Sequence record: PQ351811 | Reading direction: 5' to 3' (one strand) | Source: Shigella phage SSG23 | DNA: 64,000 bases | Shown: positions 7,147-62,026 of the stretch, one piece after another | Layout: the number at the start of each line of letters is the position of its first letter | Position numbering within the stretch: position 1 is the first letter of the stretch | Notes under the pieces: model-generated | Told to the model about the DNA's origin: nothing | Database searches by the model: none | Seen by the model: only the letters and a program-made list of their open reading frames with translations | Made by a program: the position numbers and the translations under genes

Positions 7147-7196
7147 TAAAATGCGCCCTACGGGGCGCTGGTGAATGATTTGATAGGAGATATAAC

Positions 7197-12035: not shown

Positions 12036-13426
12036 TGAGCAGAGTATTAACTTTCGATATGTTGACAGACGGACAAAAACATGCTTTCGATGTTCTGATG
12101 AAACGCATTGAACAAAAGAAACATACAACTGTCCGAGGTGCGGCGGGTACTGGTAAAACCGCAATGATGAAATTCATTGTTCAGGAAATGGTCCGCCGTG
12201 GTGTAACTGGTGTGGTTTTGGCAACGCCTACCCACCAGGCTAAAAAAGTTTTGAGTAAGGCGGTAGGTCGTCAAGCATTTACTTTACATGCTTTATTGCG
12301 TCTTAATCCGACCAATTATGAAGATACTCAAGTATTTGAACAAAAAGATACTCCTAAGCTAGATGATGTTCAGATCATCATTGTTGATGAAGCGAGTATG
12401 GTCGATAAGAAGTTATTTGATATTCTCATGAAGAGTATCAACGGGCGAATTGTTATTATTGCCGTGGGTGATCCGCACCAGTTACGACCAGTTGATCCGA
12501 GCGGTGCAACGTCAATTTCTCCTTTCTTCACGGTTGAAGAGTTTCAGAACGTGGAGTTAACAGAAATTAAAAGGTCTAATGCACCAATAATTGATGTGGC
12601 GACCGCTGTCCGTAACGGTAAATGGGTATTCGAAAAGCAGTGCGGTAACGAGGGTGTATTCCATAGCTCAACTCTACCGGAGTTTATGACTCGTTATTTT
12701 GAAGCAGTGAAAACGCCGGAAGACCTTCTAGAAAACCGTATTCTGGCTTACACTAATAAGAGTGTCGAAAAACTCAATGAAATTGTGCGTAAGCGCATTT
12801 ACAATACAGAAGATCCGGTCATTGTAGATGAAATTCTGGTTACTCAGGAACCGTTGATCGAATATCTGCGAGATGAACGCGGGAAGAAGATTCCTAATGT
12901 GATTTTTAACAACGGTGAGATGATCCGAGTTAAAGAGGTTATACCGCGCGAATTTACATTACGTTGCACGGGGGTAGATCCGCAACCAGTTTTAGGGTAT
13001 ACTCTTAAAGTCGAAAGCGTCGATAATGACGAAGACAAAGAGATCCTGAATCAGAAAGTTGGTTTAGATGCAGTCGGAATCACTACCGACAAACCGGATT
13101 TAGTAGAAATCAATATTCTGACAGAACAACGACAGAAGAACATTTTCTCTATCTACCTGAATACGGTAGCCGGACAATATCGCGAAATGAAGAAAGAGAA
13201 TCCAAACTTTAAACCAGATTGGGATTCTTTCTGGACGATGAAACGTATGTTCCTTAATGTAAAAGCATTACCAGCTTGCACTATTCATAAGTCACAAGGG
13301 ATCAGCGTAGACCGCGTGTTCCTGTATACTCCTTGCATGTGTACAGATAATGTTGACTTTGAACTGGCAATGCAGTTATTATATGTGGGTGTTACCCGTG
13401 CACGTTATCGGGTAGACTATATTTGA
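12035..13426 (+). CDS. dda: DNA helicase Dda (SF1)
   Basis: 463 aa; DMLTDGQKHAFDVLMK, Walker A GAAGTGKT, VDEASMVD, KRSNAPIIDVATAVRNGKW and C-terminal LLYVGVTR match T4 Dda. Confidence 0.9.
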   Translation: MSRVLTFDMLTDGQKHAFDVLMKRIEQKKHTTVRGAAGTGKTAMMKFIVQEMVRRGVTGVVLATPTHQAKKVLSKAVGRQAFTLHALLRLNPTNYEDTQVFEQKDTPKLDDVQIIIVDEASMVDKKLFDILMKSINGRIVIIAVGDPHQLRPVDPSGATSISPFFTVEEFQNVELTEIKRSNAPIIDVATAVRNGKWVFEKQCGNEGVFHSSTLPEFMTRYFEAVKTPEDLLENRILAYTNKSVEKLNEIVRKRIYNTEDPVIVDEILVTQEPLIEYLRDERGKKIPNVIFNNGEMIRVKEVIPREFTLRCTGVDPQPVLGYTLKVESVDNDEDKEILNQKVGLDAVGITTDKPDLVEINILTEQRQKNIFSIYLNTVAGQYREMKKENPNFKPDWDSFWTMKRMFLNVKALPACTIHKSQGISVDRVFLYTPCMCTDNVDFELAMQLLYVGVTRARYRVDYI

Positions 13427-13849: not shown

Positions 13850-14518
13850 ATGCTTCCAGTGGATTTAATGATTGACTTTGAAAGTTTAGGTTATCCGCCT
13901 GATGGGGCGGTAATCAATATGGCGGCAATCGGATTTAAAGAAGATCCACACAATCCACCGACATTTAAAGAACTGGTTGATAATTCCTTTCTGGTAAAAT
14001 TTGATATTCCTTCCCAGAAAGGTGTAAGGATCTTTGATCATGGTGTGGTTGAATGGTGGAAGAATACCGCCTCAGAAGGCATGAGAAAGCAATTAATCAC
14101 AAATGGGACGGAAGTATCAACCAAAGAAGGTTTAGCGCGTTTTAACGCATTCTGTGAATCCGTGGGAGTAGATCCGGTTAAATCCGTAATGTGGTCACGC
14201 GGTAATGCGTTTGATATTCCGTTGCTAGTTGATATGATTCGACGCGCTCATAATACCCGTGAGACGTTCACTCTTGAACCTGTGCGATTCTGGAACATCC
14301 GAGATGTTCGCACCGCCATTGAGCGTACATTAATGCATCGTGGTATGTGTGAGTGTCCGCTACCAATGGGTACATTAGACGGATTCATCGCACATGATGC
14401 AATTCACGATTGCGCTCGCGATATTCTTATGCTAATCTATGCACAACGTTATGCTATGGGTCTGGAAGACCTGCCAGAAAATCCAGACCCAAATTCAGTT
14501 AAGAAACAAAGGGGATAA
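13850..14518 (+). CDS. dexA: exonuclease A (DexA)
   Basis: 222 aa; DFESLG, FDIPSQKG, VEWWKN, FDIPLLVDMIRR, GTLDGFIAHDAIHDCARDILM and ALRYAMGLED-type C-terminus match T4 DexA. Confidence 0.85.
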   Translation: MLPVDLMIDFESLGYPPDGAVINMAAIGFKEDPHNPPTFKELVDNSFLVKFDIPSQKGVRIFDHGVVEWWKNTASEGMRKQLITNGTEVSTKEGLARFNAFCESVGVDPVKSVMWSRGNAFDIPLLVDMIRRAHNTRETFTLEPVRFWNIRDVRTAIERTLMHRGMCECPLPMGTLDGFIAHDAIHDCARDILMLIYAQRYAMGLEDLPENPDPNSVKKQRG

Positions 14519-17713: not shown

Positions 17714-19822
17714 ATGAAAATGCATATTGATAATGAAGAAGTATTTGGCAGTGACCTGAGCGGTGCGGTTGATTTTTCACTGAAAGCAAGTAGCAAGGCT
17801 TTTATGGTGCTTTCTAAGAACACATATCAATATTGTGAGCGTGCTTGCGTCCGTGAGTATTCGTGCAATGCTACCGACACTCACAAAGAAGCCGGAACCT
17901 TAGATCGTCCGTTTGATATTCATTTGCCGACTGCAATCGAACCGTATTTCTCTGTACGTGATTATGGTACTGGTATTCCATCTAAGAAAGAATTAGAACA
18001 ACTGTTTACGGTTTACTTTGAATCAACCAAAGACCAGACTAATGACTATATCGGATCTTTTGGTTTGGGTGCGAAGTCTGCTTATAGCTACACCGACACC
18101 TTTACAATCGTGAACTATTACAATGGTCGCGCTTATGGCTTTACTGCATTCGTGCAAAACTCTATGCCGAAAATGGTGCAGATTTTCGACGAACCAACCT
18201 ATGAAGACAATGGTCTGAAAATCACTATTCCGGTGAAAGAGAAAGATATTCAGACATGGCATCGAGAAGCACAATTTGTACTGCGTCATTTTGGGGAACA
18301 TAAACCGAATATCAACGCAATCGAAATTAATTATTTCCCTAGCTTTGATAATTATTATGTGTGTAATGGACGTGATAACGATTCCTATGTGGTATATGCA
18401 ATCATGGGTAAGATCCAGTATCCGATCCCGTATGAATATGTTCGCGGAACATGGTTAGAAGCTGTAAACCGCCAGCACCAGACCATTTACATTAATTTTG
18501 AGTTGGGTGATCTGGACCTGATGCCATCGCGTGAAGAAGTTCACTTGTCAATTGAGACTAAAGCGAACATCGAAAAACGTATTGCAGAAATCAATGAAAT
18601 GATGTTGGAAAAGGTTAAAGAGAAGATCGCCAGCATTGAAACGGAGCGTAAACTCGCGCAATTTATGAGCGAGTATTCATCGACTCAACGCAATATTATT
18701 AGCAAGATGGGTAAGATCGGACAATGGGACGATCCGGTAGCAATCTATAACAAGTTTGTAAATGCTGGTAAAGATTCGCCTAATGACGTAGAAGGTCAAG
18801 TGTATACTCTGTATCGTACTCGACACACAATCAGCAAATTGCGCCCTGCTTTCGTTAGCAGTCAATACAACATTACGCACTTTGTATGGATTCATAAAGA
18901 AGATATTCTATGTGTAATTGATGATACGGATAAACCGAAACTGCGTGCACTGACTCTTAACGGCATGGTCCAGGAATACGGCATCAATAAAAAGGTACTG
19001 GTGTTCCGTCAGAGCAACGAAAAACACATGGAGACTTTCGAGTACATCAAACAGTATTATGATGAATCGGAAATGACCGTGATTAAGGTATCCGAGGCCG
19101 ATGATCTGCGTGCTAAAGCAGTTAAGCCGGAGAAGACCGAACGTGCACAGCGTGAAGCTACTCCTAAGCTGCCTAACGTGTATATCATGGAAAAGATTGG
19201 TGACAGTTGGCATAAAACCAGCCATCATATGAAAGCGGCAGAGATTCGCGAGTTATCAGGCTTGCACATGTTCCGCGTGGGTGATGCATTCGAAAGCCGT
19301 AGCCGTCAATCGATCTATAGTGAAGATACCTTACACACGGCGCTTGACTACTTCGGGGTAACAAAGTATATTATTACCAGAAACGAGACACAAAAATATC
19401 TCGTTGACGAACAACTGGAATGCGCGCTAGAATTTGTTCGCGGTAAGCTGGCTGGTCTGGCTAAGAAGGTTAAGACCAATCATCTGGGGTATGGCGAATA
19501 TCTGGGTGTGATCACTATGTTGTTTCATGACGATGAATTAGAACGCTGTATTCCAGAATTTATTGACAGACTCTATGGTCGTCATTATAATAAAGAGGTT
19601 TCCAAGTTGCTCCTTCGTACTCGTTGGATTATGGACGAAGAAACTAAGAAGATCTGCGATGAAAAATTCACGGCAGCAAACGAACGAATTAAAGCAGTTT
19701 GTGCGAAGTTTAAAGAGAATAGCCCGTTACTGTATGATATTGTAGATAACTGGTATCGTATTCTGCATAATGACAAACGCGCACAAGACTTTATGAAACT
19801 GGTTAAGAATGTTAAATTTTAA
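17714..19822 (+). CDS. rIIA: rIIA protein (membrane-associated, GHKL-type ATPase fold)
   Basis: 702 aa; VRDYGTGIP and IGSFGLGAKSAYSYTDTF match T4 rIIA Bergerat-fold motifs; followed by rIIB. Confidence 0.85.
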   Translation: MKMHIDNEEVFGSDLSGAVDFSLKASSKAFMVLSKNTYQYCERACVREYSCNATDTHKEAGTLDRPFDIHLPTAIEPYFSVRDYGTGIPSKKELEQLFTVYFESTKDQTNDYIGSFGLGAKSAYSYTDTFTIVNYYNGRAYGFTAFVQNSMPKMVQIFDEPTYEDNGLKITIPVKEKDIQTWHREAQFVLRHFGEHKPNINAIEINYFPSFDNYYVCNGRDNDSYVVYAIMGKIQYPIPYEYVRGTWLEAVNRQHQTIYINFELGDLDLMPSREEVHLSIETKANIEKRIAEINEMMLEKVKEKIASIETERKLAQFMSEYSSTQRNIISKMGKIGQWDDPVAIYNKFVNAGKDSPNDVEGQVYTLYRTRHTISKLRPAFVSSQYNITHFVWIHKEDILCVIDDTDKPKLRALTLNGMVQEYGINKKVLVFRQSNEKHMETFEYIKQYYDESEMTVIKVSEADDLRAKAVKPEKTERAQREATPKLPNVYIMEKIGDSWHKTSHHMKAAEIRELSGLHMFRVGDAFESRSRQSIYSEDTLHTALDYFGVTKYIITRNETQKYLVDEQLECALEFVRGKLAGLAKKVKTNHLGYGEYLGVITMLFHDDELERCIPEFIDRLYGRHYNKEVSKLLLRTRWIMDEETKKICDEKFTAANERIKAVCAKFKENSPLLYDIVDNWYRILHNDKRAQDFMKLVKNVKF

Positions 19823-22062: not shown

Positions 22063-23427
22063 ATGGATAAAATTAGTCAAATTATAAACACAATTACTTA
22101 CCGTAGCCTTGAAAGCATTGTACACAATGAAGCTAAGGAATATGCGATCTATTCTGCCGAGGAACGCGGGATTCCTCAATTAGTAGATGGGCTTAAACCA
22201 GTGCAACGCTTTGTTATGGAATGTGCTTTGCAAAAGAGTAAAGGCGACCGTAAGAAATTCCGTAAGATGGCAGATATTGGATCTGGTGTTGCTGAGTTGG
22301 GGTATCACCACGGGGAAACTAATGCCGTAGAAGCTGGATCACTCATGGCGAATACATGGAGCAATAATACTCCACTGCTTGACGGTCAAGGTAACTTTGG
22401 ATCGCGTTTAGTCCAGAAAGCGGGGGCAGCACGTTATATCTTTGCTCGTGTGCATGAAAACTTCTTTAAAATCTATAAAGATATGAATTGCGCACCTAAG
22501 CACGAAGATCTGGAACACATCCCGCCAGCATTCTACTTGCCAGTCGTGCCAATGGTATTAGCTAATGGTATTAGTGGTATTGCTACAGGGTACAAAACTG
22601 ACATTTTACCGCATTCACTGGAAAGCCTCATTGAATGCACAGAGCTAGCACTTGCCGGAAAACTGGATAAAGAACCTACTGTTCAATTCCCGAAATTCAC
22701 GGGTAAAGTTATCCCGCGAGATGATCGCGATGGTGTGATTCTTGAGGGTACATATGAACTAAACGGCAAGACTAAGCTGACAATAACGGAAGTTCCTTAT
22801 AAGTTCGACCGTGAAGAATATGTAGCGGTACTGGATGCGCTGGAAGAAAAAGATCTGATTGTATCGTATAATGACCGTTGCTCTAAGGACGGATTCAGAT
22901 TTGAAGTAACCCTGAAACGCGATTATTTCAAAAGTGAAGATGAATCCGCTCGACATGAGCAGATCATGAAGGATTTTAAGTTAACGCAGCTAGTAGCACA
23001 GAATATCGTAGTAGTTAACGAACGTGGTTTAGTTGAAGTATTCGAGAAAGCGAGCGATCTGATCCGTCGATTCGTCGAAATCAGATTAGGCTATGTAGAT
23101 AAACGCATTGAATTGATGCAAGCCGAAACACTGGAAGCATACAATTATGCAATGGCTAAAGCAGAATTTATCGACCGCGTAATTAAGGGCGAAATCGAGC
23201 TACAGGGCAAGAAAAAGGCCGAGGTGATGCAATCCATCAATGGACATGAAAAACTGCGTCCATATGCCGATAAGCTCGTTTCTATGCCATTGTATAGCGT
23301 TACTCAAGAAGAGTATGATCGACTGGTCAAAGATGCCGATAAACATCATAGTGAATATGAGTATTGGACAAAGACGACCGCAATGAAGGAATATAAGAAA
23401 GATCTTAAAGAACTTAAGAAGGGTTGA
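22063..23427 (+). CDS. 52: topoisomerase II medium subunit gp52 (GyrA-like)
   Basis: GLKPVQRFV motif and size match T4 gp52; start chosen at RBS-proximal ATG. Confidence 0.85.
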   Translation: MDKISQIINTITYRSLESIVHNEAKEYAIYSAEERGIPQLVDGLKPVQRFVMECALQKSKGDRKKFRKMADIGSGVAELGYHHGETNAVEAGSLMANTWSNNTPLLDGQGNFGSRLVQKAGAARYIFARVHENFFKIYKDMNCAPKHEDLEHIPPAFYLPVVPMVLANGISGIATGYKTDILPHSLESLIECTELALAGKLDKEPTVQFPKFTGKVIPRDDRDGVILEGTYELNGKTKLTITEVPYKFDREEYVAVLDALEEKDLIVSYNDRCSKDGFRFEVTLKRDYFKSEDESARHEQIMKDFKLTQLVAQNIVVVNERGLVEVFEKASDLIRRFVEIRLGYVDKRIELMQAETLEAYNYAMAKAEFIDRVIKGEIELQGKKKAEVMQSINGHEKLRPYADKLVSMPLYSVTQEEYDRLVKDADKHHSEYEYWTKTTAMKEYKKDLKELKKG

Positions 23428-23633
23428 TTATGAAAGATTATCCCGTAGGTGGTTATGTGGCTTTCGTGTTCAACAATGAAAAGATTGCACCAATGGTCGT
23501 TGAGACTATGGAAGAAGCCAACCGGATCACTATTGAATCTCTGAACAAGTTAGCAGAGATAACAAACACACCAAAACACAGAGCAACGATAGATTATTTG
23601 ATGAAAGAATTTTTGGAGGGAAAGTATGACTGA
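23424..23633 (+). CDS. hypothetical protein
   Basis: 69-aa ORF overlapping gp52 stop. Confidence 0.35.
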   Translation: MIMKDYPVGGYVAFVFNNEKIAPMVVETMEEANRITIESLNKLAEITNTPKHRATIDYLMKEFLEGKYD

Positions 23634-24021
23634 ACGACGCATCACTGCAACTGGTTTGGGTAATCATCATGCATGGATGGTTAATCCAGACAAAAATCCT
23701 TATAAACTGTACGATACAACGATTAAACCGTGGGATAATGGCGTGTGGAAAACATCACCGACAACAGCACCTATTATGACCGATCCGAAACCGATTAGCC
23801 CGATGGCGGAACCAGTACAGATTAAGCCGTTACCATACCAGATAACGACGAATAGCATCGCCAACAAGCAAGAAAATGATATTGATATGATCTACGAGAT
23901 GATTAAACTTTGGCGTGATGTTTATCTGGGTGTTCTTTGCAACACAGATAAAAGTGCACATGCGGCAGCGGTACTTGCATCTCATGCGGTAGACGAAGCC
24001 AAAAAGAAATTTAGCAAGTAA
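23626..24021 (+). CDS. hypothetical protein
   Basis: 131-aa ORF. Confidence 0.4.
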   Translation: MTERRITATGLGNHHAWMVNPDKNPYKLYDTTIKPWDNGVWKTSPTTAPIMTDPKPISPMAEPVQIKPLPYQITTNSIANKQENDIDMIYEMIKLWRDVYLGVLCNTDKSAHAAAVLASHAVDEAKKKFSK

Positions 24022-24030
24022 CTGATTATT

Positions 24031-24059
24031 AAGCCGATCCTTGTGGTCGGCTTTTTTTT
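24031..24059 (+). terminator. rho-independent terminator (AAGCCGATCC-ttgtg-GTCGGCTT + T8)
   Basis: Strong hairpin and T-run; same element in inverted orientation at 34614-34636. Confidence 0.7.
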
Positions 24060-24072
24060 ATTTTAAAAGTTG

Positions 24073-24101
24073 TTGACTTCCATAATCCAACATTGCATAA
24101 T
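24073..24101 (+). promoter_or_regulatory. sigma70-like early promoter TTGACT-17-CATAAT
   Basis: Conserved leader cataccaaacaaaaggagattcaaaa then ATG 24133. Confidence 0.55.
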
Positions 24102-24132
24102 ACACCCATACCAAACAAAAGGAGATTCAAAA

Positions 24133-24339
24133 ATGAAAGTACGTTGCATTGAAACCGATCACATCAATTATAGCTTTAGTGTCGGGTGTGATTATGATGT
24201 TGATATATTCACGGACAATAGCGGAAACACATTTGATGTAGTTCACGGTGACTATATTTGGTTTTACTTTGACAAACAACAACTTACTGCAACCAAACGA
24301 AATGGTGATCCGGTAGCAAAATTTGAAATAATCGAATAA
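24133..24339 (+). CDS. hypothetical protein
   Basis: 68-aa ORF from RBS-proximal ATG. Confidence 0.4.
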   Translation: MKVRCIETDHINYSFSVGCDYDVDIFTDNSGNTFDVVHGDYIWFYFDKQQLTATKRNGDPVAKFEIIE

Positions 24340-24345
24340 AGTCTA

Positions 24346-24374
24346 TTGACACCAGAACAAGGGAGTAGTAACAT
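24346..24374 (+). promoter_or_regulatory. PeSL-type promoter TTGACA-17-TAACAT within palindrome GGGAGTA...TACTCCC
   Basis: Palindrome 24361-24380; conserved leader and RBS before ATG 24406. Confidence 0.55.
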
Positions 24375-24405
24375 ACTCCCATACCAAACAAAAGGAGAAT
24401 CAAAG

Positions 24406-24678
24406 ATGAGCAACAAAAACAGCAAAGTGTTAGCAATTGCAGATAAAGTAGGCTACTGGAAATGTTGGGATGATATGGAGAAATTAGGCGGTCGCTATCT
24501 CGATAACTTAGAGTTGCATTATTGCCAAGCGCGTAATGCAGAAGTTGCGGGAGTAGCAATCGAAGATATTCCGTCTAAAGTCTTCGGATTCTCTAAAGAT
24601 GATACCTTAGAGTATGTTTTTAAGGCTGTAATGGATCAAGCATGGGAAGACGCAGAGACACGCGCTCTTGATTGGTGA
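24406..24678 (+). CDS. hypothetical protein
   Basis: 90-aa ORF. Confidence 0.4.
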   Translation: MSNKNSKVLAIADKVGYWKCWDDMEKLGGRYLDNLELHYCQARNAEVAGVAIEDIPSKVFGFSKDDTLEYVFKAVMDQAWEDAETRALDW

Positions 24679-24853
24679 TAATATGAACTGGTATAAAATT
24701 TGGAAAAATCAGGTGGAGGCTTATCTAGGGTATAAGCCCACCGACGAAGAATTACTCGATGCAATGTACGAAGACGGACTAAATCCGAAAGTAGCCGCGC
24801 AAGAATACGCGGAATGGATGAAGGTCGAAGATAACCTAAAGGGGAAACTATGA
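24668..24853 (+). CDS. hypothetical protein
   Basis: 61-aa ORF; start uncertain (possibly 24683). Confidence 0.3.
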   Translation: MIGDNMNWYKIWKNQVEAYLGYKPTDEELLDAMYEDGLNPKVAAQEYAEWMKVEDNLKGKL

Positions 24854-25074
24854 AGAAAATGATTGCAATTGCTTTGCTGGCTAGTGCATGTACTGTAAAT
24901 GCTAATACCGCAGCGATGGTCGCGGCTGTAACTGCTGCAAATGCTTCCGTTATGGCTTCACAAGAGGCAGCACGCCAGCAAGCACAACAAGAAGCCCAGC
25001 GAAAAGCACATGAGGCGACGAAAAATTTTCACGAAAATAATAAAAAAGAAGTTGACGCCAAAGGTCGTCGGTAG
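24850..25074 (+). CDS. small secreted protein (N-terminal signal peptide)
   Basis: MKKMIAIALLASACTVNA signal-like N-terminus, Ala/Gln-rich mature part; 3' end overlaps next promoter. Confidence 0.4.
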   Translation: MKKMIAIALLASACTVNANTAAMVAAVTAANASVMASQEAARQQAQQEAQRKAHEATKNFHENNKKEVDAKGRR

Positions 25075-25080
25075 TATTAT
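25052..25080 (+). promoter_or_regulatory. PeSL-type promoter TTGACG-17-TATTAT
   Basis: Followed by ACTCCC half-palindrome and conserved leader. Confidence 0.5.
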
Positions 25081-25114
25081 ACTCCCATACCGAAACGAAC
25101 TGGAGGAAATAAAA

Positions 25115-25357
25115 ATGGTTAAAGTTAATGTTATCGAAGTTGCACTGTACGACGCTGGGATCTTCCTGAATGAAAAAGAAGCTGCCGTCCTCGACGAACT
25201 GAAAACTGTTTTTGTTCCTGTAGTAGAAGACGTAGAAGCAATCAAAATCGCTTCTCGTAAACTGTCCCATGAAGCATTTGACATGATTGATCCGGTTTTC
25301 AAAGTTATGCACGAATGCGCGGTTATGATGACCGAAGAAGAAGCGAAAAATTTCTAA
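25115..25357 (+). CDS. hypothetical protein
   Basis: 80-aa ORF from RBS-proximal ATG. Confidence 0.4.
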   Translation: MVKVNVIEVALYDAGIFLNEKEAAVLDELKTVFVPVVEDVEAIKIASRKLSHEAFDMIDPVFKVMHECAVMMTEEEAKNF

Positions 25358-25363
25358 AATTAG

Positions 25364-25392
25364 TTGACGTAAAGAAACGGGAGTAGTAAGAT
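25364..25392 (+). promoter_or_regulatory. PeSL-type promoter TTGACG-17-TAAGAT within palindrome GGGAGTAgtaagaTACTCCC
   Basis: Palindrome 25379-25398; leader ataccaaacgaaaggagaatcac. Confidence 0.55.
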
Positions 25393-25421
25393 ACTCCCAT
25401 ACCAAACGAAAGGAGAATCAC

Positions 25422-25634
25422 ATGAAATCTATCGAGCAAGTAGTAACCGAGTTTATGAGCTACGAAGGAAACCGCATCTTTGGACGTTCTCAAGTTCGCG
25501 AGATCGTAGAAGAAGTTGCGAGAGAGTTTGCGGAATCTGGTCACATTATCACGAAAGACCGTAAAGAAGAAGCAGTAAACCAGATCATGGCTATACAGAA
25601 AATGCGTATTAATTTACGCGTGGGTAAACATTAA
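25422..25634 (+). CDS. hypothetical protein
   Basis: 70-aa ORF. Confidence 0.4.
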   Translation: MKSIEQVVTEFMSYEGNRIFGRSQVREIVEEVAREFAESGHIITKDRKEEAVNQIMAIQKMRINLRVGKH

Positions 25635-25643
25635 AAATAGTTG

Positions 25644-25672
25644 TTGACAGGGGATCGGTGATCCCCTATAAT
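25644..25672 (+). promoter_or_regulatory. PeSL-type promoter TTGACA-[GGGGATCggtGATCCCC]-TATAAT
   Basis: 17-bp palindromic spacer with two GATC sites forms the whole spacer between consensus -35 and -10. Confidence 0.6.
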
Positions 25673-25703
25673 GAACTCATCAAGACAACGAAGGAGAATC
25701 AAA

Positions 25704-25859
25704 ATGAAACATACTCACAAATTAATGGTTAAATTTGAAGGTGCTAAGGGATATGAACGTTACGGTGTATTCTTCTCTGAGGATGATGCATGGGATGCTG
25801 GTTTGGCAACGTTCGCCGAACACAACAACATTGAAGACTTTACTGTAGAAGAAATTTAA
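25704..25859 (+). CDS. hypothetical protein
   Basis: 51-aa ORF from RBS-proximal ATG. Confidence 0.35.
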   Translation: MKHTHKLMVKFEGAKGYERYGVFFSEDDAWDAGLATFAEHNNIEDFTVEEI

Positions 25860-25867
25860 AAAAGTAG

Positions 25868-25896
25868 TTGACACCGGATTATGGGAGTAGTAAGAT
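25868..25896 (+). promoter_or_regulatory. PeSL-type promoter TTGACA-17-TAAGAT within palindrome GGGAGTAgtaagaTACTCCC
   Basis: Palindrome 25883-25902. Confidence 0.55.
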
Positions 25897-25929
25897 ACTC
25901 CCATCAAGAAAAACATTGAGGAATATATT

Positions 25930-26688
25930 ATGAAAAACATTATCGCTGCTATCGTTCTTTCTGCTACTGCTTTCGGTGCTAATGCTGCGTCCTTTGATTG
26001 CACTAAGGCTACTACCAAATCAGAGAAGTTTATTTGTGCTAATGAGTCAATCTCCGCACTGGATTCTAAACTTCATGAAGTATATGTTAAGGCCGTTAAG
26101 ATTGATCCGTCTCTGAAACAAGAGCAACGTAACTGGAATAAAACTGTTCGTGATACTATGATCAATATCGGGCAGATTCAGCCACTGGAGGCTGTATATA
26201 ACGCTCAAATCCAAAACTTGATGAATGTATTACCTAAAGAAGAAACAGCGTCAGAAAGCGATTCAGAGACTTCTGCGAAGGTTGAAAAAGAACAACCGAA
26301 ACAGGAAGCAAAAGTGGTAGAAGAACCGAAGGTTGAAACTTTTACTTATCAATGCAACATTCGCTATGAGTGGAGTATTAAAGATGGAATTTCCACCAAA
26401 ATTAAAGAAGCGCCACTGTATGCCAAATATGGAAATCAACCAGGAGATCTTCAAGTAACAATTAAAAATGGGGAAATGGTCGATTTTGTATACATTGATG
26501 AATACAACGTACACAAAGCAAACGTACAAGAAACCGTTATGACTAAAGGCGGGTTTTATAAAAATGTTGGCAAGAAAGATCTATATGAATACTCCGTTTT
26601 CGAACCAAACGACGGAACTATTCGATTTGAAAAACGTCATCCTACATTCGGTGGCGCAATTGATGTAGATCAATACGTTTGCAAGTAA
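25930..26688 (+). CDS. secreted protein with DUF1311/LprI-like (lysozyme-inhibitor family) N-terminal domain
   Basis: 252 aa; signal peptide MKNIIAAIVLSATAFGANA; FDCTKATTKSEKFICANESISALDSKLHEVY...QEQRNWNKTVRD fits DUF1311 pattern as recalled. Confidence 0.45.
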   Translation: MKNIIAAIVLSATAFGANAASFDCTKATTKSEKFICANESISALDSKLHEVYVKAVKIDPSLKQEQRNWNKTVRDTMINIGQIQPLEAVYNAQIQNLMNVLPKEETASESDSETSAKVEKEQPKQEAKVVEEPKVETFTYQCNIRYEWSIKDGISTKIKEAPLYAKYGNQPGDLQVTIKNGEMVDFVYIDEYNVHKANVQETVMTKGGFYKNVGKKDLYEYSVFEPNDGTIRFEKRHPTFGGAIDVDQYVCK

Positions 26689-26699
26689 GAGGTTAAATT

Positions 26700-26978
26700 A
26701 TGCAATTCAATAACATGAAGATCACAAAAGATTGGTGGGATGCTATGAGAGCTAACGACCGGATCGGAATTGGAAAGGCAGAAAAGACAGTTGTTATTGT
26801 CGAGTATAAAGCGACGCAAGATCTTTTAATTAAGGAACTTATTCGAGCGGGGAGCTATCAAACACCGGAGGGTCTTATTGACATGATGGTTGATAACATG
26901 TATAGTGACGAACCGCCAAACATTAAACAACATTACAAGCAGTATTACCGAAAGTGGCAGAAGTATAACCGAAAATAG
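26700..26978 (+). CDS. hypothetical protein
   Basis: 92-aa ORF. Confidence 0.4.
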   Translation: MQFNNMKITKDWWDAMRANDRIGIGKAEKTVVIVEYKATQDLLIKELIRAGSYQTPEGLIDMMVDNMYSDEPPNIKQHYKQYYRKWQKYNRK

Positions 26979-27001
26979 TTTGTTGACGTGAGGATTATAT
27001 T

Positions 27002-27193
27002 ATGGTAATTTTTAATCGCGATGGTATCATAGTTCGGCAACACCCATTCCTTGAATACTATCAGGTTGAACAATGGGGATACGGGGATTGCTCGCGCTCA
27101 TACGGTCAAAGCTGGAGATACCGTACAGTTTTTGAATCAACTAATATTGACAAAGTACGACAGAAAGTTTTAGAACTTCTTAACGATAAGTGA
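27002..27193 (+). CDS. hypothetical protein
   Basis: 63-aa ORF, RBS GAGGA upstream. Confidence 0.35.
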   Translation: MVIFNRDGIIVRQHPFLEYYQVEQWGYGDCSRSYGQSWRYRTVFESTNIDKVRQKVLELLNDK

Positions 27194-27203
27194 GGATTAC
27201 ATC

Positions 27204-27572
27204 ATGGAAATTCAAAACAATTACGAAAAATGTGTTATTATCAATGATCTGCAACGTCAATTGCACCACTACGAAACCGATTATAAGACAGCAACCAAAA
27301 CCGGAAAACTGAAAGTGTGGGAAGTTTGGTATAACCGAAACTATCTAGGCAGTATCCACAAACTTGATCGCAGTGATGTTTATACAATGCATGTAGGCGC
27401 TTGCGGTGAATCGGATGTAGCATTTAATTTCATGGAAGCACTTGCATTCTATGTAGAATATCTGGTAGACTATATCGAGTTGGAAGAGGAAGTGGTAGAA
27501 TTGCTTCCTCCACCGGAAGAAGCGCCGGAAGCAACTATCCTTAAAGCATTAAAGAAAATCTTTGTTAAGTGA
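27204..27572 (+). CDS. hypothetical protein
   Basis: 122-aa ORF, RBS GAGGA upstream. Confidence 0.4.
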   Translation: MEIQNNYEKCVIINDLQRQLHHYETDYKTATKTGKLKVWEVWYNRNYLGSIHKLDRSDVYTMHVGACGESDVAFNFMEALAFYVEYLVDYIELEEEVVELLPPPEEAPEATILKALKKIFVK

Positions 27573-27580
27573 GGTGAACT

Positions 27581-27913
27581 ATGAAAAATGTACTGATTGT
27601 ATGGGAACTGATTCCAGAAACTACCGAATTGTACATGGTACAGGTTGACGATAAAGAATTTGAAATTCTGAAACGCGTCAACTGCAAATATATTAACATT
27701 GATGACATGACCCCAGAAATGGACTATGTAAACTATGCTCTCATGCAGCCTAGCTGGATTATGGATGAAACTAAAGCAGATGCCGAATCGCTGGGTGTAC
27801 CGGAAGAAGTATTAGCGAAATGGCATCAATTCAAAGTTGAGATAAAAGAGGGTGAACCGTTTATCCCTAGCGGTATGATCGACGCGGTGATCGTAACAGG
27901 TTTTCATCTGTAA
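27581..27913 (+). CDS. hypothetical protein
   Basis: 110-aa ORF. Confidence 0.4.
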   Translation: MKNVLIVWELIPETTELYMVQVDDKEFEILKRVNCKYINIDDMTPEMDYVNYALMQPSWIMDETKADAESLGVPEEVLAKWHQFKVEIKEGEPFIPSGMIDAVIVTGFHL

Positions 27914-27925
27914 GGGTATTCTATA

Positions 27926-28258
27926 ATGTTTAATTATGACAAATATGAATCATGGAAAGCATCCGAACTGAAAGAGGCAGCGCGGTTAATCACACCGCGT
28001 CTTTATCCGGTACTGTTTAGCGCCGATAAAGTAACAAGGGAAGTAAACGAGGCGCTATCGGTTTTAGGTTATCTAATCGATAAAGTAGAGAAAACATCGG
28101 TATTCACAAATAGTGTAGAATATACCCGTTATCGAGTGTTTTTAGATTCCCTGCTCGTTGTCATTAAGGCGCTAAATGATCATAACTACACCATGAACAT
28201 GACGAAAATAATCGACGAAGCAAGAATTATGACAGAGAATATTTTCGGAAGATTTTGA
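27926..28258 (+). CDS. hypothetical protein (paralog of 28374-28688)
   Basis: 110 aa; C-terminus IIDEARIMTENIFGRF resembles IIIDARKLAENVYGKF of the next-but-one ORF. Confidence 0.4.
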   Translation: MFNYDKYESWKASELKEAARLITPRLYPVLFSADKVTREVNEALSVLGYLIDKVEKTSVFTNSVEYTRYRVFLDSLLVVIKALNDHNYTMNMTKIIDEARIMTENIFGRF

Positions 28259-28373
28259 TTATGAAAGATGATGAATCATTGAAAATTGCACTGGTTATTC
28301 TATTACAAGGTATAGAATTAGCAAACCACGAAAAAATGTTGATACAACAACGTGAAATTATGAGAGGTTGATT

Positions 28374-28688
28374 ATGAGTGATATTAAAACCGATGAAGAA
28401 ATGCAGGATATTGCAAAGGAATTAACCACCATCATGATCCGTCGCGGATCGTATAATGCAAAAACCATTATCGATGAAGTCAATACAGCGATTAAGGCAA
28501 TCGAGAAAGTAAAGTCAGACGTTGCATTTGAAAGATACACATGGGAAGATATTCGCAATCGAAGCCGCTATAATTTCTTTGTTGATTGTATTATGTCAAT
28601 GGTTGAACATTACGGGCATAGCATGAATGACATTATCATCGATGCACGTAAGCTGGCAGAGAATGTTTACGGGAAGTTTCCAGAATGA
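28374..28688 (+). CDS. hypothetical protein (paralog of 27926-28258)
   Basis: 104 aa. Confidence 0.4.
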   Translation: MSDIKTDEEMQDIAKELTTIMIRRGSYNAKTIIDEVNTAIKAIEKVKSDVAFERYTWEDIRNRSRYNFFVDCIMSMVEHYGHSMNDIIIDARKLAENVYGKFPE

Positions 28689-28933
28689 AATTAGAGCAAG
28701 CGATTGTTTATTTTGAGATGGGCTATGATATTGCTCGTGTAGAATGGGAAGATGGTGATTTTGTTCGATTGATTGATCTTCCAGAAACAGCTATTGCACT
28801 GGTCAAAGTAGAAAACGGCGTACAACGAAATTACGCGTTTTCTGACGAAGACAAACAAGCCGATGACTGGTACGCTACCTGTTTTCATCATACAGCGTCA
28901 AAATTCGATTCAGGCGCGTCTATGCGTCAATAA
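28685..28933 (+). CDS. hypothetical protein
   Basis: 82-aa ORF. Confidence 0.4.
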   Translation: MKLEQAIVYFEMGYDIARVEWEDGDFVRLIDLPETAIALVKVENGVQRNYAFSDEDKQADDWYATCFHHTASKFDSGASMRQ

Positions 28934-28937
28934 AAAA

Positions 28938-28965
28938 GAAGGGGAGGCCGAAAGGCTTCCCCTTT
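28938..28965. terminator. bidirectional terminator hairpin between convergent plus-strand block and holin gene
   Basis: AAGGGGAGGCC-gaaa-GGCTTCCCCTT with A-run upstream and T-run downstream. Confidence 0.6.
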
Positions 28966-28968
28966 AAG

Positions 28969-29625
28969 TTATCTAATCCTTCCGAGGATTCTGGCAGATT
29001 GATTACAAAGAGTATCTAAATTCTCGATATCAATATCTGGTTTATTCTTCCATGCAATGGCAATACTACCAGAATAGACATTATCGAGATTGAATATAGG
29101 ACAAGAATACATGAATCCTATATCGATATTCTCTAATTTTTTCTCCCTCGATGGAATATACTGGAAATCTTTATCGGTAAAATAGGATTTACCTAAAAGA
29201 TGCCTACGATATTCTTCACTCGTTTTATTGATAGGGAATCCGCCTAAATTCTTTTCATCGATTGTATGCGGTAGCTTTCCTTCATATGCCACCAAATCAA
29301 CAAAATAGTTTAGGTTTTTCGGACGAAAACTAAAAACAGCAGAAAAATCGGCATCAGCCGACACATGAACTATCTGTAACTGCTCCTGTGCTGCATTATC
29401 AAAATTGCGGTCTTTCTCTACCTGGAGAACGTGAGCATAAGTCTCATAACGAGTCTCTTTATACAAAGCAAACAACTCGTTTTTGCTATAAACGACAAAT
29501 GCTAATATGGACAACACGACGGCAGCAAAAACACGAAGTACGAGCAACTCCGTGCTTTTAGTTGTGAAAATAGCGCGCAGGACATTTGAGATAGCAAAGT
29601 CTTTCTCTTTTTCAGAAACTTGCAT
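28969..29625 (-). CDS. t: holin T
   Basis: 218 aa; single TM then EQLQIVHVSADADFSAVFSFRPKNLNYFVDLVAYEGKLP and ARILGR match T4 holin T. Confidence 0.85.
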   Translation of the reverse strand: MQVSEKEKDFAISNVLRAIFTTKSTELLVLRVFAAVVLSILAFVVYSKNELFALYKETRYETYAHVLQVEKDRNFDNAAQEQLQIVHVSADADFSAVFSFRPKNLNYFVDLVAYEGKLPHTIDEKNLGGFPINKTSEEYRRHLLGKSYFTDKDFQYIPSREKKLENIDIGFMYSCPIFNLDNVYSGSIAIAWKNKPDIDIENLDTLCNQSARILGRIR

Positions 29626-29658
29626 ATAATGCCCTAAGATAACTATGACAGTGTACTC

Positions 29659-29898
29659 TTATTTAGGTACTTGACTATCACTAGGTTTATCTTGCTCGTT
29701 GCTATCTTCCGACTGATCTTTATTAAACTCCTTATAAAGTTCTTCCACAAAACGGTCATCAATTGGCGTATTGGTATAAGCCGCAAGACGACGAGCGCAA
29801 TAGAAGAAAATTTTAGTGAGCATCTTTTCACTAATTAACTTTGATAATAGTTTCATTCCGAAACTAGACAAAGCACCAATGACGATATTATAGACCAT
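29659..29898 (-). CDS. hypothetical small protein between gene 37 and t (not gp38-like in size)
   Basis: 79 aa, hydrophobic/amphipathic N-terminus, acidic C-terminus. Confidence 0.35.
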   Translation of the reverse strand: MVYNIVIGALSSFGMKLLSKLISEKMLTKIFFYCARRLAAYTNTPIDDRFVEELYKEFNKDQSEDSNEQDKPSDSQVPK

Positions 29899-52427: not shown

Positions 52428-52478
52428 AAAAGTAGTTGACACTGAATAACGGGGGTAGTAATATACCCCCATCGAAAC
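52427..52478 (+). repeat. PeSL copy 1: 52-bp promoter/stem-loop cassette (TTGACA-17-TAATAT, palindrome GGGGGTA...TACCCCC)
   Basis: 52 bp identical to 52703-52754. Confidence 0.7.
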
Positions 52479-61965: not shown

Positions 61966-61994
61966 TTGACAATGATTAACGGGAGTAGTAAGAT
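61966..61994 (+). promoter_or_regulatory. PeSL-type promoter TTGACA-17-TAAGAT within palindrome GGGAGTAgtaagaTACTCCC
   Basis: Same module as 25364 and 25868. Confidence 0.55.
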
Positions 61995-62026
61995 ACTCCC
62001 ATCAAGAAAACAAACGGAGAATCAAA

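Follow-up and report, generated by a model that had tools for sequence, protein, structure and literature searches.

Promoter-stem-loop cassettes in phages and bacteria

In 2010, PeSL (promoter-early stem-loop) cassettes were described for RB49 and phi1, coliphages of the RB49 type (Arbiol et al., 2010; PMC2839356). A published PeSL comprises an AT-rich region with the upstream stop codon, sigma-70 -35 and -10 elements, a stem-loop, and a 3' Shine-Dalgarno sequence with a start codon. The stem-loop is placed between -35 and -10, overlapping -10, or upstream of -35. The same work reported lacZ promoter and terminator tests and mini-circle evidence for PeSLs (PMC2839356). For RB49, which is without motA, the consensus of early promoters is in agreement with 5'-end mapping (Nolan et al., PMC1524935).

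Composite promoter-terminator motifs likewise adjoin variable hyperplastic-region ORFs in T4/PST, in KVP40/nt-1 (Comeau et al., 2014; PMC4122927) and at the T4 internal-protein loci. Unlike the elements studied here, they use T4-type early promoters and weaker AT-rich stems, and Arbiol et al. regard the PeSL-like elements of T4-type phages as analogs, not homologs (PMC2839356). Lambdoid morons and integron cassettes also insert a single accessory gene with its own expression signals between existing genes (PMC2839356). However, morons are not thought to move through regulatory sequences, and integrons need an integrase and attC sites, whereas PeSL homology comes from the repeated promoter cassette, with no dedicated recombinase known. 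In bacteria, promoter-coupled terminators overlap the termination and initiation signals of neighbouring units. As outlined by Fletcher et al. (2026; bioRxiv 10.64898/2026.08.19.745784), the stem-loop DNA of these elements forms the -35, with the T-tract ahead of the -10. Compared with that outline, the hairpins described below differ in overlapping the -10 or the spacer and in having no T-tract.

The gene 52-gene t block and its cassettes

The window, i.e. the whole analysed stretch of 64,000 nucleotides from Shigella phage SSG23, shows 100% identity to SFHK24, a Shigella phage of the genus Krischvirus (RB49 group), by sequence comparison. Topoisomerase gene 52 and holin gene t bound the flagged block, a variable region (RB49 ORFs 266-255; 93% identity to RB49 across the block); in T4, motA-arn-asiA occupies this interval. 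The repeated promoter/stem-loop elements in this block are real, and they are the PeSL cassettes described for RB49-type phages, as the earlier note had proposed; the phage identity and the element parts both fit. They share genus, genome interval, parts and part order with the RB49/phi1 PeSLs, and the positions of their stem-loops all match subclasses already described. ORFan indels and chimeric PeSLs occur in both, and nothing essential differs. Because PeSLs have already been described for this type of phage, the finding confirms known biology. RB49 lacks ORF1, ORF4 and ORF5, all three present here as cassette ORFs, and phi1 ORF263.1 is missing from this genome. Very probably, the block is the Krischvirus gene 52-gene t accessory region, with six RB49/phi1-type PeSLs in its left 1.9 kb that work as proposed below.

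At the left border, the canonical intrinsic terminator noticed earlier was recovered at 24031-24059 (+ strand; 9-bp stem at 24031-24053, then the T-run TTTTTTTTATTT). It ends the transcription unit of gene 52, ORF268 and ORF267, and it is also the stem-loop part of PeSL1, which belongs to the subclass with the stem-loop upstream of -35. The right border had been set at 28260. Since holin gene t (218 aa; Pfam Phage_holin_T, E 4.9e-61) lies at 28969-29625 on the minus strand, the real end is 28933. The block is closed by a GC-rich stem-loop with A-run and T-run flanks (28938-28964, no strand assigned), which separates ORF16 from the holin gene's 3' end; the GEC-3S annotation has a terminator on both strands at the corresponding site. 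About 15 ORFs of 50-250 aa had been estimated; we count 13 within 24061-28260 and 16 as far as the holin, and they are 36-252 aa long.

Six full cassettes lie at 24060-25930, all on the + strand. Each is a unit of 65-80 nt that starts within the AT-rich region holding the upstream ORF's stop codon and continues with a strong host sigma-70 promoter, made up of TTGACN, a spacer of 17 bp in all six, and a -10 hexamer. The conserved initiation site C-A-T follows 5-7 nt past the -10, and an A/C-rich leader of about 25 nt then leads to the ribosome-binding site and the next ORF's ATG. Matches to the composite pattern TTGAC-N19-A-N3-T-N5-CAT number 16 in the window (0.33 expected); every one is on the + strand, and six fall within the 1.9-kb cassette stretch. 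Meanwhile, TACTCCCAT occurs seven times (0.31 expected), and a direct-repeat family of 66 nt has four copies.

In PeSL1 (24060-24132), the AT-rich region is followed by -35 TTGACT (24073-24078), -10 CATAAT (24096-24101), a putative +1 at 24108, the A of CAT, and the leader CCCATACCAAACAAAAGGAGA. This cassette precedes the variable gene ORF1 (24133-24339, +; 68 aa, phrog_9122). PeSL2 (24332-24405; -35 TTGACA 24346-24351, -10 TAACAT 24369-24374, predicted +1 24381) lies ahead of ORF2 (24406-24678, +; 90 aa, RB49p266). ORF3 (24683-24853, +; 56 aa, RB49p265) follows after a gap of 4 nt with no PeSL in between, and the start of ORF4 (24850-25074, +; 74 aa) overlaps the ORF3 stop (ATGA). ORF4 is unannotated in the SFHK24 record and variable among relatives; its N-terminus, MKKMIAIALLASAC, reads like a signal peptide or lipoprotein signal, and its last 8 codons form the -35 and spacer of PeSL3 (25038-25114; -35 TTGACG 25052-25057, -10 TATTAT 25075-25080, predicted +1 25087). 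Next comes ORF5 (25115-25357, +; 80 aa), which has no PHROG or Pfam hit and is confined to 31 phage records, whose names all point to Krischvirus or close relatives. PeSL4 (25346-25421; -35 TTGACG 25364-25369, -10 TAAGAT 25387-25392, predicted +1 25399) precedes ORF6 (25422-25634, +; 70 aa, RB49p264). PeSL5 (25630-25703), whose promoter matches the consensus at 12/12 positions (-35 TTGACA 25644-25649, -10 TATAAT 25667-25672, predicted +1 25679), precedes the variable gene ORF7 (25704-25859, +; 51 aa, RB49p263), present in 35 phage records. PeSL6 (25852-25929; -35 TTGACA 25868-25873, -10 TAAGAT 25891-25896, predicted +1 25903) is the final promoter ahead of the ORF8-16 cluster.

Taken together, the promoter-block observation is partly confirmed and its PeSL interpretation is supported. 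The earlier note had given every ORF its own promoter, counted at least seven promoters, and placed an AAGGAGA ribosome-binding site in all of them. Of the 16 ORFs, only 6 are preceded by a cassette of their own, and AAGGAGA is found in four of these six cassettes. The would-be seventh promoter, TTGACG at 26983, was rejected for ORF10: it lies only 19 nt upstream of the ORF10 ATG, so that the start codon would fall inside the spacer. It belongs to a truncated PeSL (26972-26988, +) that retains the AT-rich part and -35 only, with AAAATAGTTTGTTGACG fused straight to the ORF10 ribosome-binding site. This remnant is alike in RB49 and GEC-3S and tandemly triplicated in phi1. We also rejected TTGACA-17-TATAGT at 26878 as a PeSL; it lies inside ORF9 and is without other PeSL features.

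Hairpins and their possible roles

Four cassettes contain strong GC-rich hairpins of 7-9 bp, whose 3' arm ends at or before position -1. The palindromes in which the earlier note had placed several of the promoters were all located and fold stably (-11.9 to -13.6 kcal/mol, z -1.8 to -4.2). GGGAGTA..TACTCCC overlaps the -10 in PeSL2 (24361-24380; -11.9 kcal/mol, z -4.2), PeSL4 (25379-25398; -11.9 kcal/mol, z -3.9) and PeSL6 (25881-25904, 9 bp; -13.6 kcal/mol, z -3.1), and GGGGATC..GATCCCC of PeSL5 (25649-25667; -12.8 kcal/mol) lies within the spacer. The PeSL3 hairpin is degenerate (GGTAGTA/TACTCCC, one mismatch, z -1.75), and folding gives no hairpin between -35 and +1 of PeSL1 (MFE 0).

On the basis of these promoters, unmodified host RNA polymerase would fire all six right after infection. 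Each hairpin lies upstream of its own +1 and would thus be transcribed only by polymerases reading through from the upstream cassette. On such read-through RNA it may act as an attenuator, a terminator or a 3'-end protector, insulating the cassettes from one another. The sequence 3' of the hairpins is AUACCAAAC or UAUAAUG in place of a U-tract, which makes them poor canonical intrinsic terminators, and a terminator scan finds two of them terminator-like, on the minus strand only. In the literature, terminator activity is reported for PeSL211/210 only.

The arms differ among copies yet stay complementary: GGGAGTA/TACTCCC, GGGGGTA/TACCCCC, GGGGATAT/ATATCCCC, GGGGATC/GATCCCC and GCGGGGA/TCCCCGC. 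In JK32, PeSL6 carries a compensatory change (TGGAGTA/TACTCCA). Counting against the proposed hairpin action, orthologous hairpins are broken in some relatives (GEC-3S PeSL4, E26 PeSL3, phi1 PeSL6), and PeSL1 and PeSL3 are without a good one. The arm variation bears on whether the palindromes are instead sites for a dimeric DNA-binding protein, which could be a phage regulator shutting off early promoters at the -10 or a recombination protein targeting the cassettes. Perfect inverted repeats do overlap or abut the -10, GGGAGTA-N6-TACTCCC occurs four times in the window, and Arbiol et al. speculate that GGGG...CCCC is the target of a specific DNA-binding protein (PMC2839356). The outline of Fletcher et al. 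(2026) also allows terminator palindromes to double as transcription-factor binding sites. However, at least five unrelated arm sequences occur, in three positions or registers relative to -35 and -10, and analogous cassettes of T1-like siphoviruses use more than eight, so many that one protein could not read all. The compensatory change alters the sequence and retains the pairing, and no candidate regulator was found in the block. We therefore consider protein sites very unlikely.

On the other hand, the hairpins might act at the promoter itself. The 3' arm would then provide a discriminator rich in G+C, with CCC directly ahead of +1, and supercoiling could extrude the inverted repeat; either would tune open-complex stability or the response to ppGpp/DksA and supercoiling. 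The most frequent class has a 3' arm that coincides exactly with the -6 to -1 discriminator, and RB49 early promoters prefer C at -3 to -1 (Nolan et al., PMC1524935). Yet the PeSL5-type hairpin is wholly in the spacer and the PeSL1 stem-loop is upstream of -35, so the position relative to promoter elements is not fixed; the sole constant is a hairpin upstream of +1. Moreover, in the lacZ test of Arbiol et al., a stem-loop by itself lowered read-through (PMC2839356). A promoter-level role is unlikely, and we favor an action on read-through RNA.

Cassette exchange and the ORF8-16 cluster

All 15 related genomes compared have the motifs, in syntenic positions. Across these relatives, the ORF1 and ORF7 cassettes are gained or lost via PeSL-to-PeSL crossovers that left chimeric PeSLs, which shows cassette recombination comparatively for both genes and upholds the proposed shuffling of accessory genes. 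For ORF1, the indel breakpoints are 24137 and 24373, with an in-register overlap of 37 nt, and genomes without ORF1 (RB49, phi1, GEC-3S and 8 further relatives examined) carry a chimeric PeSL in which the PeSL1 promoter is joined to the end of the PeSL2 leader. For ORF7, the breakpoints are 25655 and 25852, and the overlap of 26-31 nt lies in the AT-rich/-35 part; the chimeric version is present in KMB43. Both the ORF4+5 indel and the ORF263.1 insertion have one of their ends within a PeSL, in its AT-rich part. We propose that the cassettes supply 26-37 nt in-register identity patches for the phage recombination system, and that recombination between two of them would delete, insert or swap the enclosed ORF, leaving a single chimeric PeSL.

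Alternatively, the cassettes are ordinary early promoters, alike by ancestry and host constraints, and illegitimate recombination makes indels of which only those ending in intergenic DNA survive. PeSL spans make up 8.5% of the interval and contain six of the 11 distinct breakpoints (binomial 1.2e-4), but this enrichment is confounded: PeSLs are nearly all the intergenic DNA of the variable part, and selection for intact genes alone would also cluster surviving breakpoints there. Furthermore, two of seven indel classes have ends unrelated to PeSLs, namely the in-frame ORF3-ORF4 fusion (24845/25000) and the ORF8 domain swap (26331/26670). Against this, the ORF1 and ORF7 indels end at the same register of two different PeSLs, their junctions share 26-37 nt and chimeric PeSLs are present, the signature of homologous, not illegitimate, exchange. 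PCR evidence of PeSL mini-circles in RB49 and phi1 has also been published (PMC2839356). Cassettes without a role in shuffling are thus improbable, and PeSL-mediated exchange is preferred.

The nearest homologs of ORF1 outside Krischvirus are in T1-like siphoviruses. We notice that such phages, which belong to a different virus family (Drexlerviridae: Sfin-1, PKP126), carry analogous repeated promoter-hairpin cassettes. As here, the -10 marks the centre of the hairpin, which stops immediately short of a CAT or CAC start; next come a leader of the CCCCATCGAAAC or CCCATACCAAC type, a ribosome-binding site and ATG. They also stand upstream of small early ORFs, the ORF1 homolog included, and are enriched at indel breakpoints. 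The upstream half differs, with TAGCAC-N3-TTGYTAAA about 22 nt before the -10 in place of TTGACA-N17. Exact k-mer sharing between the two sets is not above chance, which is compatible with homology or convergence.

The earlier description of a hyperplastic block applies from 24061 to about 26700. Downstream, the PeSL-free stretch 26700-28933 has no indel >100 bp among the 15 relatives. ORF8-16 (25930-28933) form a single tightly packed cluster in which no PeSL was found; most likely PeSL6 feeds it as one early cluster, which ends at the stem-loop before the holin gene. ORF8 (25930-26688, +; 252 aa, RB49p262) is a secreted two-domain protein in which a signal peptide and a helical LprI-like domain are followed by an E/K-rich linker and, at the C-terminus, by an 8-stranded beta domain. 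Its C-terminal part (26331-26670) is an exchangeable allele. With ORF4, it bears out the predicted secreted proteins, as both N-termini read like signal peptides. The 5' half of ORF8 has 96% identity to an E. coli gene.

ORF9 (26700-26978), ORF10 (27002-27193), ORF11 (27204-27572), ORF12 (27581-27913), ORF13 (27926-28258), ORF14 (28261-28371), ORF15 (28374-28688) and ORF16 (28685-28933), all on the + strand, overlap or are separated by gaps of 2-23 nt. They are kept in all relatives examined, and ORF11 is 98-100% identical across 58 records. ORF13 and ORF15 are the expected paralogs. The suggested anti-defence cargo has one concrete match, the Tad2-like ORF16.

Position and architecture of the cassettes

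The accessory-gene block is bordered on the left by topoisomerase gene 52 with ORF268 and ORF267, and on the right by holin gene t on the opposite strand. Its 4.2-kb region is 100% identical to that of Shigella phage SFHK24 (PQ351812.1, genus Krischvirus) and 92–96% identical to ~60 further Krischvirus records, among them RB49, in which the equivalents of the block are ORF266 to ORF255. In T4, the 52-to-t interval contains motA.1, motA, arn.4–arn.1, arn, asiA.1 and asiA, and the search for a motA ortholog in RB49 was unsuccessful (PMC1524935). The block thus lies at the site where T4-type phages hold anti-restriction and early host-takeover genes.

Six promoter-early stem-loop (PeSL) cassettes at 24060–25930, PeSL1 to PeSL6, precede ORF1, ORF2, ORF5, ORF6, ORF7 and ORF8, respectively, all of them ORFs without known function. 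Their −35 elements locate at 24073, 24346, 25052, 25364, 25644 and 25868. In each cassette, an AT-rich stretch that holds the stop codon of the gene upstream (e.g. TAAAATTAGTTGACG, TAAAAATAGTTGTTGACA, TAAAAAAGTAGTTGACA) is followed by TTGACN, a spacer of exactly 17 bp, the −10 hexamer, five bases, CAT, an A/C-rich leader, a Shine-Dalgarno sequence and ATG, and 9–12 of 12 positions match a sigma-70-like −35/−10. The exception is the stop codon of PeSL3, where that of ORF4 falls in the spacer; the −35 and most of the spacer (25052–25074) lie inside the ORF4 CDS, covering its last 8 codons (EVDAKGRR) and then the stop.

Arbiol et al. (2010) described ~50 PeSLs each in RB49 and phi1, with 51 counted for RB49 (PMC2839356). 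A published PeSL consists of a sigma-70 consensus promoter, an AT-rich upstream region and a stable, often polyG/polyC stem-loop in one of five positions; most lie in hyperplastic regions before ORFans and contribute a 3′-terminal Shine-Dalgarno sequence and start codon (PMC2839356). The cassettes here show every sequence-level defining feature: among other things, they lie between genes in a hyperplastic region, carry a Shine-Dalgarno sequence and a start codon at their 3′ ends, and occur in many copies concentrated in variable regions (16 strict and ~8 looser elements in 64 kb). The earlier note, which had named PeSLs of RB49-group T4-type phages, therefore identified them rightly: the feature is real, and PeSLs are already known in exactly this phage group. 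The value of the result is confirmation, as a sequence-only reading recognised a published class of mobile regulatory cassette in a genome new to the databases.

Within the 64 kb of the window, the composite pattern TTGAC-N19-A-N3-T-N5-CAT is matched 16 times where 0.33 is expected, each time on the plus strand, and 6 of the 16 sit inside the 1.9 kb of the six cassettes. The looser elements, also on the plus strand, have 16- or 18-bp spacers and are otherwise alike. TACTCCCAT occurs 7 times (0.31 expected), and a repeat finder returned a 66-nt family of 4 copies. A generic promoter scan of 20–32 kb with loose thresholds found 35 promoters against 34.2 expected, which is no excess, so that the excess becomes visible only with the composite motif. 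The late-promoter motif TATAAATA was not found in the block, so nothing points to early promoters overlapping with late ones there, and Rfam contained no known RNA family matching 23800–29100.

We also notice that PeSL6 (25881–25912) and the PeSL at 61966 (61979–62010) share an identical 30-nt core, GGGAGTAGTAAGATACTCCCATCAAGAAAA, 36 kb apart, and that identical hairpins recur in the window at 52436/52712, 16991/63508 and 60575/61732. These copies are potential substrates for long-range ectopic recombination.

Four of the cassettes form strong hairpins: PeSL2 (MFE −11.9 kcal/mol, z −4.2), PeSL4 (−11.9 kcal/mol, z −3.9), PeSL5 (−12.8 kcal/mol, z −1.8) and PeSL6 (−13.6 kcal/mol, z −3.1). Three of the four overlap the −10, and one sits between the −35 hexamer and its −10 partner. 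PeSL3 has a degenerate stem (z −1.75), and folding gives no hairpin for PeSL1. PeSL1 starts 14 nt past a canonical terminator, whose hairpin stands upstream of the −35, an arrangement corresponding to the published PeSL subclass with the stem-loop upstream of the −35. This terminator (24031–24053 plus T-run), noted in the earlier reading, is genuine.

The arm pairs in the window vary yet stay complementary (GGGAGTA/TACTCCC, GGGGGTA/TACCCCC, GGGGATAT/ATATCCCC, GGGGATC/GATCCCC and GCGGGGA/TCCCCGC) and occur in three different registers. Among relatives, PeSL6 of JK32 carries TGGAGTA/TACTCCA, a compensatory double change, and PeSL6 of phi1 a G-U wobble; the hairpins of GEC-3S PeSL4 and E26 PeSL3 are disrupted. 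The varying complementary arms and the JK32 change favour, in this small sample, selection for pairing rather than for one protein-binding sequence.

We infer that transcription starts at the A of CAT, 7 nt past the −10. In every case the hairpin's 3′ arm extends no further than the C of the conserved CAT, so with this start site no cassette would transcribe its own hairpin. The hairpins here are not followed by a U-tract, which leaves the role of efficient intrinsic terminator unproven for the six cassettes; an attenuator or a 3′-end protector would fit equally well. The published terminator test concerned one PeSL, other than these six, and promoter and terminator/attenuator activity in vivo, as well as mini-circles, were reported for PeSL193/192, 206/205 and 211/210 of RB49/phi1 only (PMC2839356). 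In a consensus scan, the PeSL hairpins at 24361–24380 and 25377–25400 qualify as terminator-like on the minus strand alone, since the purine-rich spacer reads as a T-rich tail there. They could act as a barrier to antisense transcription arriving from the holin side.

Gene map and exchange among relatives

The reading of a separate cassette for each small ORF holds for six ORFs and fails for the remainder of the 16 present up to the holin. The ORF number, first put at about 15, becomes these 16, of which 13 lie within 24061–28260. ORF2 and ORF3 are separated by 4 nt, ORF3 and ORF4 overlap by 4 nt, and ORF8 to ORF16 are spaced by 2–23 nt or overlap. The block does not end at 28260 as proposed; the holin gene occupies 28969–29625 on the minus strand, and the true end is therefore 28933. 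A supposed seventh promoter also has to be withdrawn. Its TTGACG (26983) stands 19 nt before the ORF10 ATG and runs directly into the ORF10 ribosome-binding site; it is a PeSL stump, with the AT-rich part and −35 only, identical in RB49 and GEC-3S. At that site the window, RB49 and GEC-3S have the single truncated stump AAAATAGTTTGTTGACG, and phi1 (4790–4895 of its sequence L017, against window 26960–27010) carries a tandem triplication of a 27-nt unit, AAGTACAACCGAAAATAAGTTGTTGAC. The phi1 triplication is a local amplification of the PeSL 5′ half and the end of ORF261.

In the GenBank record of SFHK24, no PeSL is annotated, ORF4 (24850–25074) is missing, and ORF5 is given as 24941–25357, reading through PeSL3. 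In FL04, KMB43 and W115, two genes with the sizes of ORF4 and ORF5 are annotated with a gap between them, and GEC-3S has a promoter annotated between the two equivalents. The practical yield is a corrected gene and operon map of six cassette-driven units followed by one conserved 3-kb cluster, which splits the ORFs that vary among relatives (ORF1, 4, 5 and 7) from nine that are fixed in the genus.

Window 23400–29700 was aligned with its counterpart in 14 relatives, and the phi1 locus was inspected in addition. Seven classes of indel or replacement were found. The ORF1 cassette (class 1) is absent in 10 of the 14 aligned relatives and in phi1. The alignment ends at 24136/7 and restarts at 24373, with 37 nt of the relative covered by both pieces, which places an in-register crossover in the −10-to-ATG half common to PeSL1 and PeSL2. 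Where ORF1 is missing, the genomes have a chimeric cassette, in which the PeSL1 promoter, devoid of a hairpin, is joined to the GGAGAATCAAAGATG end of PeSL2. The ORF7 cassette (class 2) is absent in 5 of 14, with breakpoints at 25655 and 25852, an overlap of 26–31 nt in the AT-rich/−35 part of PeSL5 and PeSL6, and a chimera in KMB43. ORF4 and ORF5 together (class 3) are absent in RB49, JK32, TB34 and GoldenSnicker; the right end, 25346, falls in the AT-rich part of PeSL4, and the left end is the ORF3 3′ end. In classes 4 and 5, a phi1-type ORF263.1 is inserted or substituted between 25624–25633 and 25853, the AT-rich borders of PeSL5 and PeSL6. The last two classes are unrelated to PeSLs: a 155-bp in-frame deletion joins ORF3 to the ORF4 tail in phiS, E26 and 011D4 (class 6), and the C-terminal half of ORF8 (26331–26670) is replaced in GEC-3S, E26 and MIZ6 (class 7), the phi1 equivalent of ORF8 being the same longer 801-nt gene.

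Of 11 distinct breakpoints, 6 fall in PeSL spans, which make up 8.5% of the interval (binomial 1.2e-4); since PeSLs fill nearly all intergenic DNA here, this enrichment is confounded with selection for intact genes. The in-register overlaps and chimeras are the stronger argument for shuffling. Across the PeSL-free 26700–28933, no indel >100 bp occurs in the 14 aligned relatives. Gene prevalence in the phage collection agrees with the indel pattern: ORF1 is found in 13 records at ≥90% identity, ORF5 in 31 and ORF7 in 35, and ORF11 in 58 (98–100% identity). Arbiol et al. proposed that PeSL–PeSL recombination inserts, deletes and replaces ORFans through mini-circles (PMC2839356). The comparison of gene content supports PeSL-mediated shuffling, which the earlier note had cited for RB49-group phages, with indel borders in or beside PeSLs and chimeric PeSLs left behind.

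Two further observations concern this interval. Records named RB49 disagree in the block: NC_005066.1/AY343333.1 are without ORF4 and ORF5, and OZ035808.1 (‘Krischvirus RB49’) has ORF5 and gives a single-piece alignment over 24373–28260. Either an indel bordered by a PeSL has set the stocks apart, or one of the records bears the wrong name. In addition, an 18-nt inverted repeat (24829–24846/28957–28974) matches at 17/18 positions with arms 4.1 kb apart, where a rough estimate expects ~0.01 such pairs in 5 kb. The left arm is the ORF3 3′ end, where the ORF4/5 indels have their left breakpoint, and the right arm comprises the 3′ end of the holin gene and one arm of the terminal stem-loop.

Cargo genes ORF16 and ORF8

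Besides side observations worth a note, the analysis leaves three leads: ORF16, ORF8 and the cassettes of T1-like siphoviruses. Most block ORFs match only PHROGs of unknown function, and ORF4 and ORF5 have no PHROG or Pfam match. The description of the cargo as secreted proteins, paralogs and unknowns is accurate, given the signal peptide of ORF8, the paralogs ORF13 and ORF15 (27% identity, E 6e-8) and the PHROGs of unknown function. Its designation as anti-defence cargo finds one candidate, ORF16, which belongs to the conserved half of the block and not to the plastic half.

ORF16 (28685–28933) is RB49p255, the last gene before the holin, just beyond 28260. Its 82 aa lie within the ~80–90 aa expected of a DUF2829 protein, and residues 1–63 match Pfam PF11195 (DUF2829, Tad2-like) at 28.4 bits, above the cut-off of 25 (E 2.4e-6); a sequence search of the PDB gave no match. 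ORF16 has few relatives, 2 by word-index search and 8 by full scan, so the structure model was built on 5 sequences. The AlphaFold model has a pLDDT of 73.6, and each of its 8 best PDB matches is a Tad2 structure, from SPO1 or Myroides, with TM 0.55–0.62 and probability 1.0 at an E of only ~1e-2. By Pfam and predicted fold, ORF16 is a Tad2-like protein. Tad2 proteins are phage sponges that bind and sequester immune signalling nucleotides, inhibiting Thoeris, CBASS and Pycsar. ORF16, annotated only as hypothetical in the record of every relative examined, is a candidate immune-signal sponge that ends the conserved early cluster of all examined Krischviruses.

ORF8 (25930–26688) matches Pfam PF07007 (LprI) over residues 24–76, with 26 bits against a cut-off of 22, behind a signal peptide read from the sequence as MKNIIAAIVLSATAFGANA|A. 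Its model displays a helical LprI domain, then a linker that is E/K-rich and disordered, and a C-terminal beta domain predicted with confidence. The LprI family is named after one mycobacterial member, and lysozyme inhibition by ORF8 is putative. The fold search returned only weak similarities to small beta-barrels (NHBA, TbpB, fHbp, lipocalin/FABP; E ≥6e-3), from which we did not infer a function for the beta domain.

The first 408 nt of ORF8 (25930–26337), encoding the signal peptide, LprI domain and linker, are 95–96% identical in DNA to an E. coli chromosomal gene, annotated as ‘lysozyme inhibitor LprI family’ and present in 26 of 5,426 complete E. coli genomes. In E. coli EC416 (7001–7408 of sequence L023), this gene has prophage-like genes with IS421 to one side and hicAB-yncJ to the other, and thus stands at an apparent prophage edge. 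From the ATG the identity extends as far as the linker, the point at which the Krischvirus alleles switch as well. Upstream, the E. coli gene has CCATACCAAAAGAGG, resembling a PeSL leader. Behind the near-invariant N-terminal half, the C-terminal beta domain (26331–26670) has at least three alleles with ~30% identity, namely the window type, the GEC-3S/E26/MIZ6 type, to which phi1 probably belongs, and the E. coli type. This domain-swap pattern suggests a diversifying interaction. The lead here is a secreted LprI-like protein with a 5′ half near-identical to an E. coli gene and an exchangeable C-terminal domain.

Cassettes of T1-like siphoviruses

The nearest ORF1 homologs outside Krischvirus are found in T1-like siphoviruses (61% identity for gp25 of Shigella phage Sfin-1, ~41% in Klebsiella Webervirus), and there too a promoter-hairpin cassette precedes the gene. 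These phages (Drexlerviridae) have ~20 such cassettes per 50-kb genome, in the order TAGCAC-N3-TTGYTAAA, hairpin centred on the −10, CAT start, CCCCATCGAAAC or CCCATACCAAC leader, ribosome-binding site and ATG. In Sfin-1, GCAC-N3-TTGYTAAA occurs 24 times against 0.44 expected, and downstream of most copies come a hairpin with the −10 at its centre, a CAT or CAC, a leader rich in A and C, a ribosome-binding site and ATG (e.g. 13339–13409, 14352–14430 and 19058–19132; in Klebsiella phage PKP126, 274–344 and 1430–1501). The Drexlerviridae hairpins use >8 arm sequences, one of them the window's GGGAGTA..TACTCCCACACCAAACGAAA.

The layout of these cassettes resembles that of the Krischvirus PeSLs, through either homology or convergence. 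PeSL profiles gave no nhmmer match in the Sfin-1 genome, which was then scanned by position-weight matrix with a noisy shuffle null (maximum 22.7). The window and Sfin-1 have no more exact k-mers in common than chance would give; they share one 18-mer in a PeSL and an equally long match in non-PeSL sequence. With k-mer sharing at chance and the nhmmer search null, we do not claim sequence homology.

Two published PeSL studies deal with T4-type phages only (PMC2839356, PMC4122927). We tentatively consider, as a possibility on the doubtful side, that the PeSL design (hairpin ending at −1 around the −10, CAT start, CCCATACCAAAC or CCCATCGAAAC type leader) extends beyond them, based on the Drexlerviridae cassettes, the ORF1 homolog, the indel borders and the PeSL-type leader on the E. 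coli copy of ORF8. If truly shared rather than convergent, it would provide a common ‘linker’ for swapping small early genes among unrelated virulent coliphages and prophages during co-infection. PeSL-like T1 cassettes with the same breakpoint behaviour would extend the shuffling model past the T4 group, a question that its authors left open. Three Tunavirus comparisons gave 17 indel breakpoints, of which 8, including those of cassette-to-cassette deletions, fall in cassettes, which constitute 8.8% of the sequence (binomial 4e-5). One 70-nt cassette is 88–98% identical over >250 Drexlerviridae records, with flanks that do not match.
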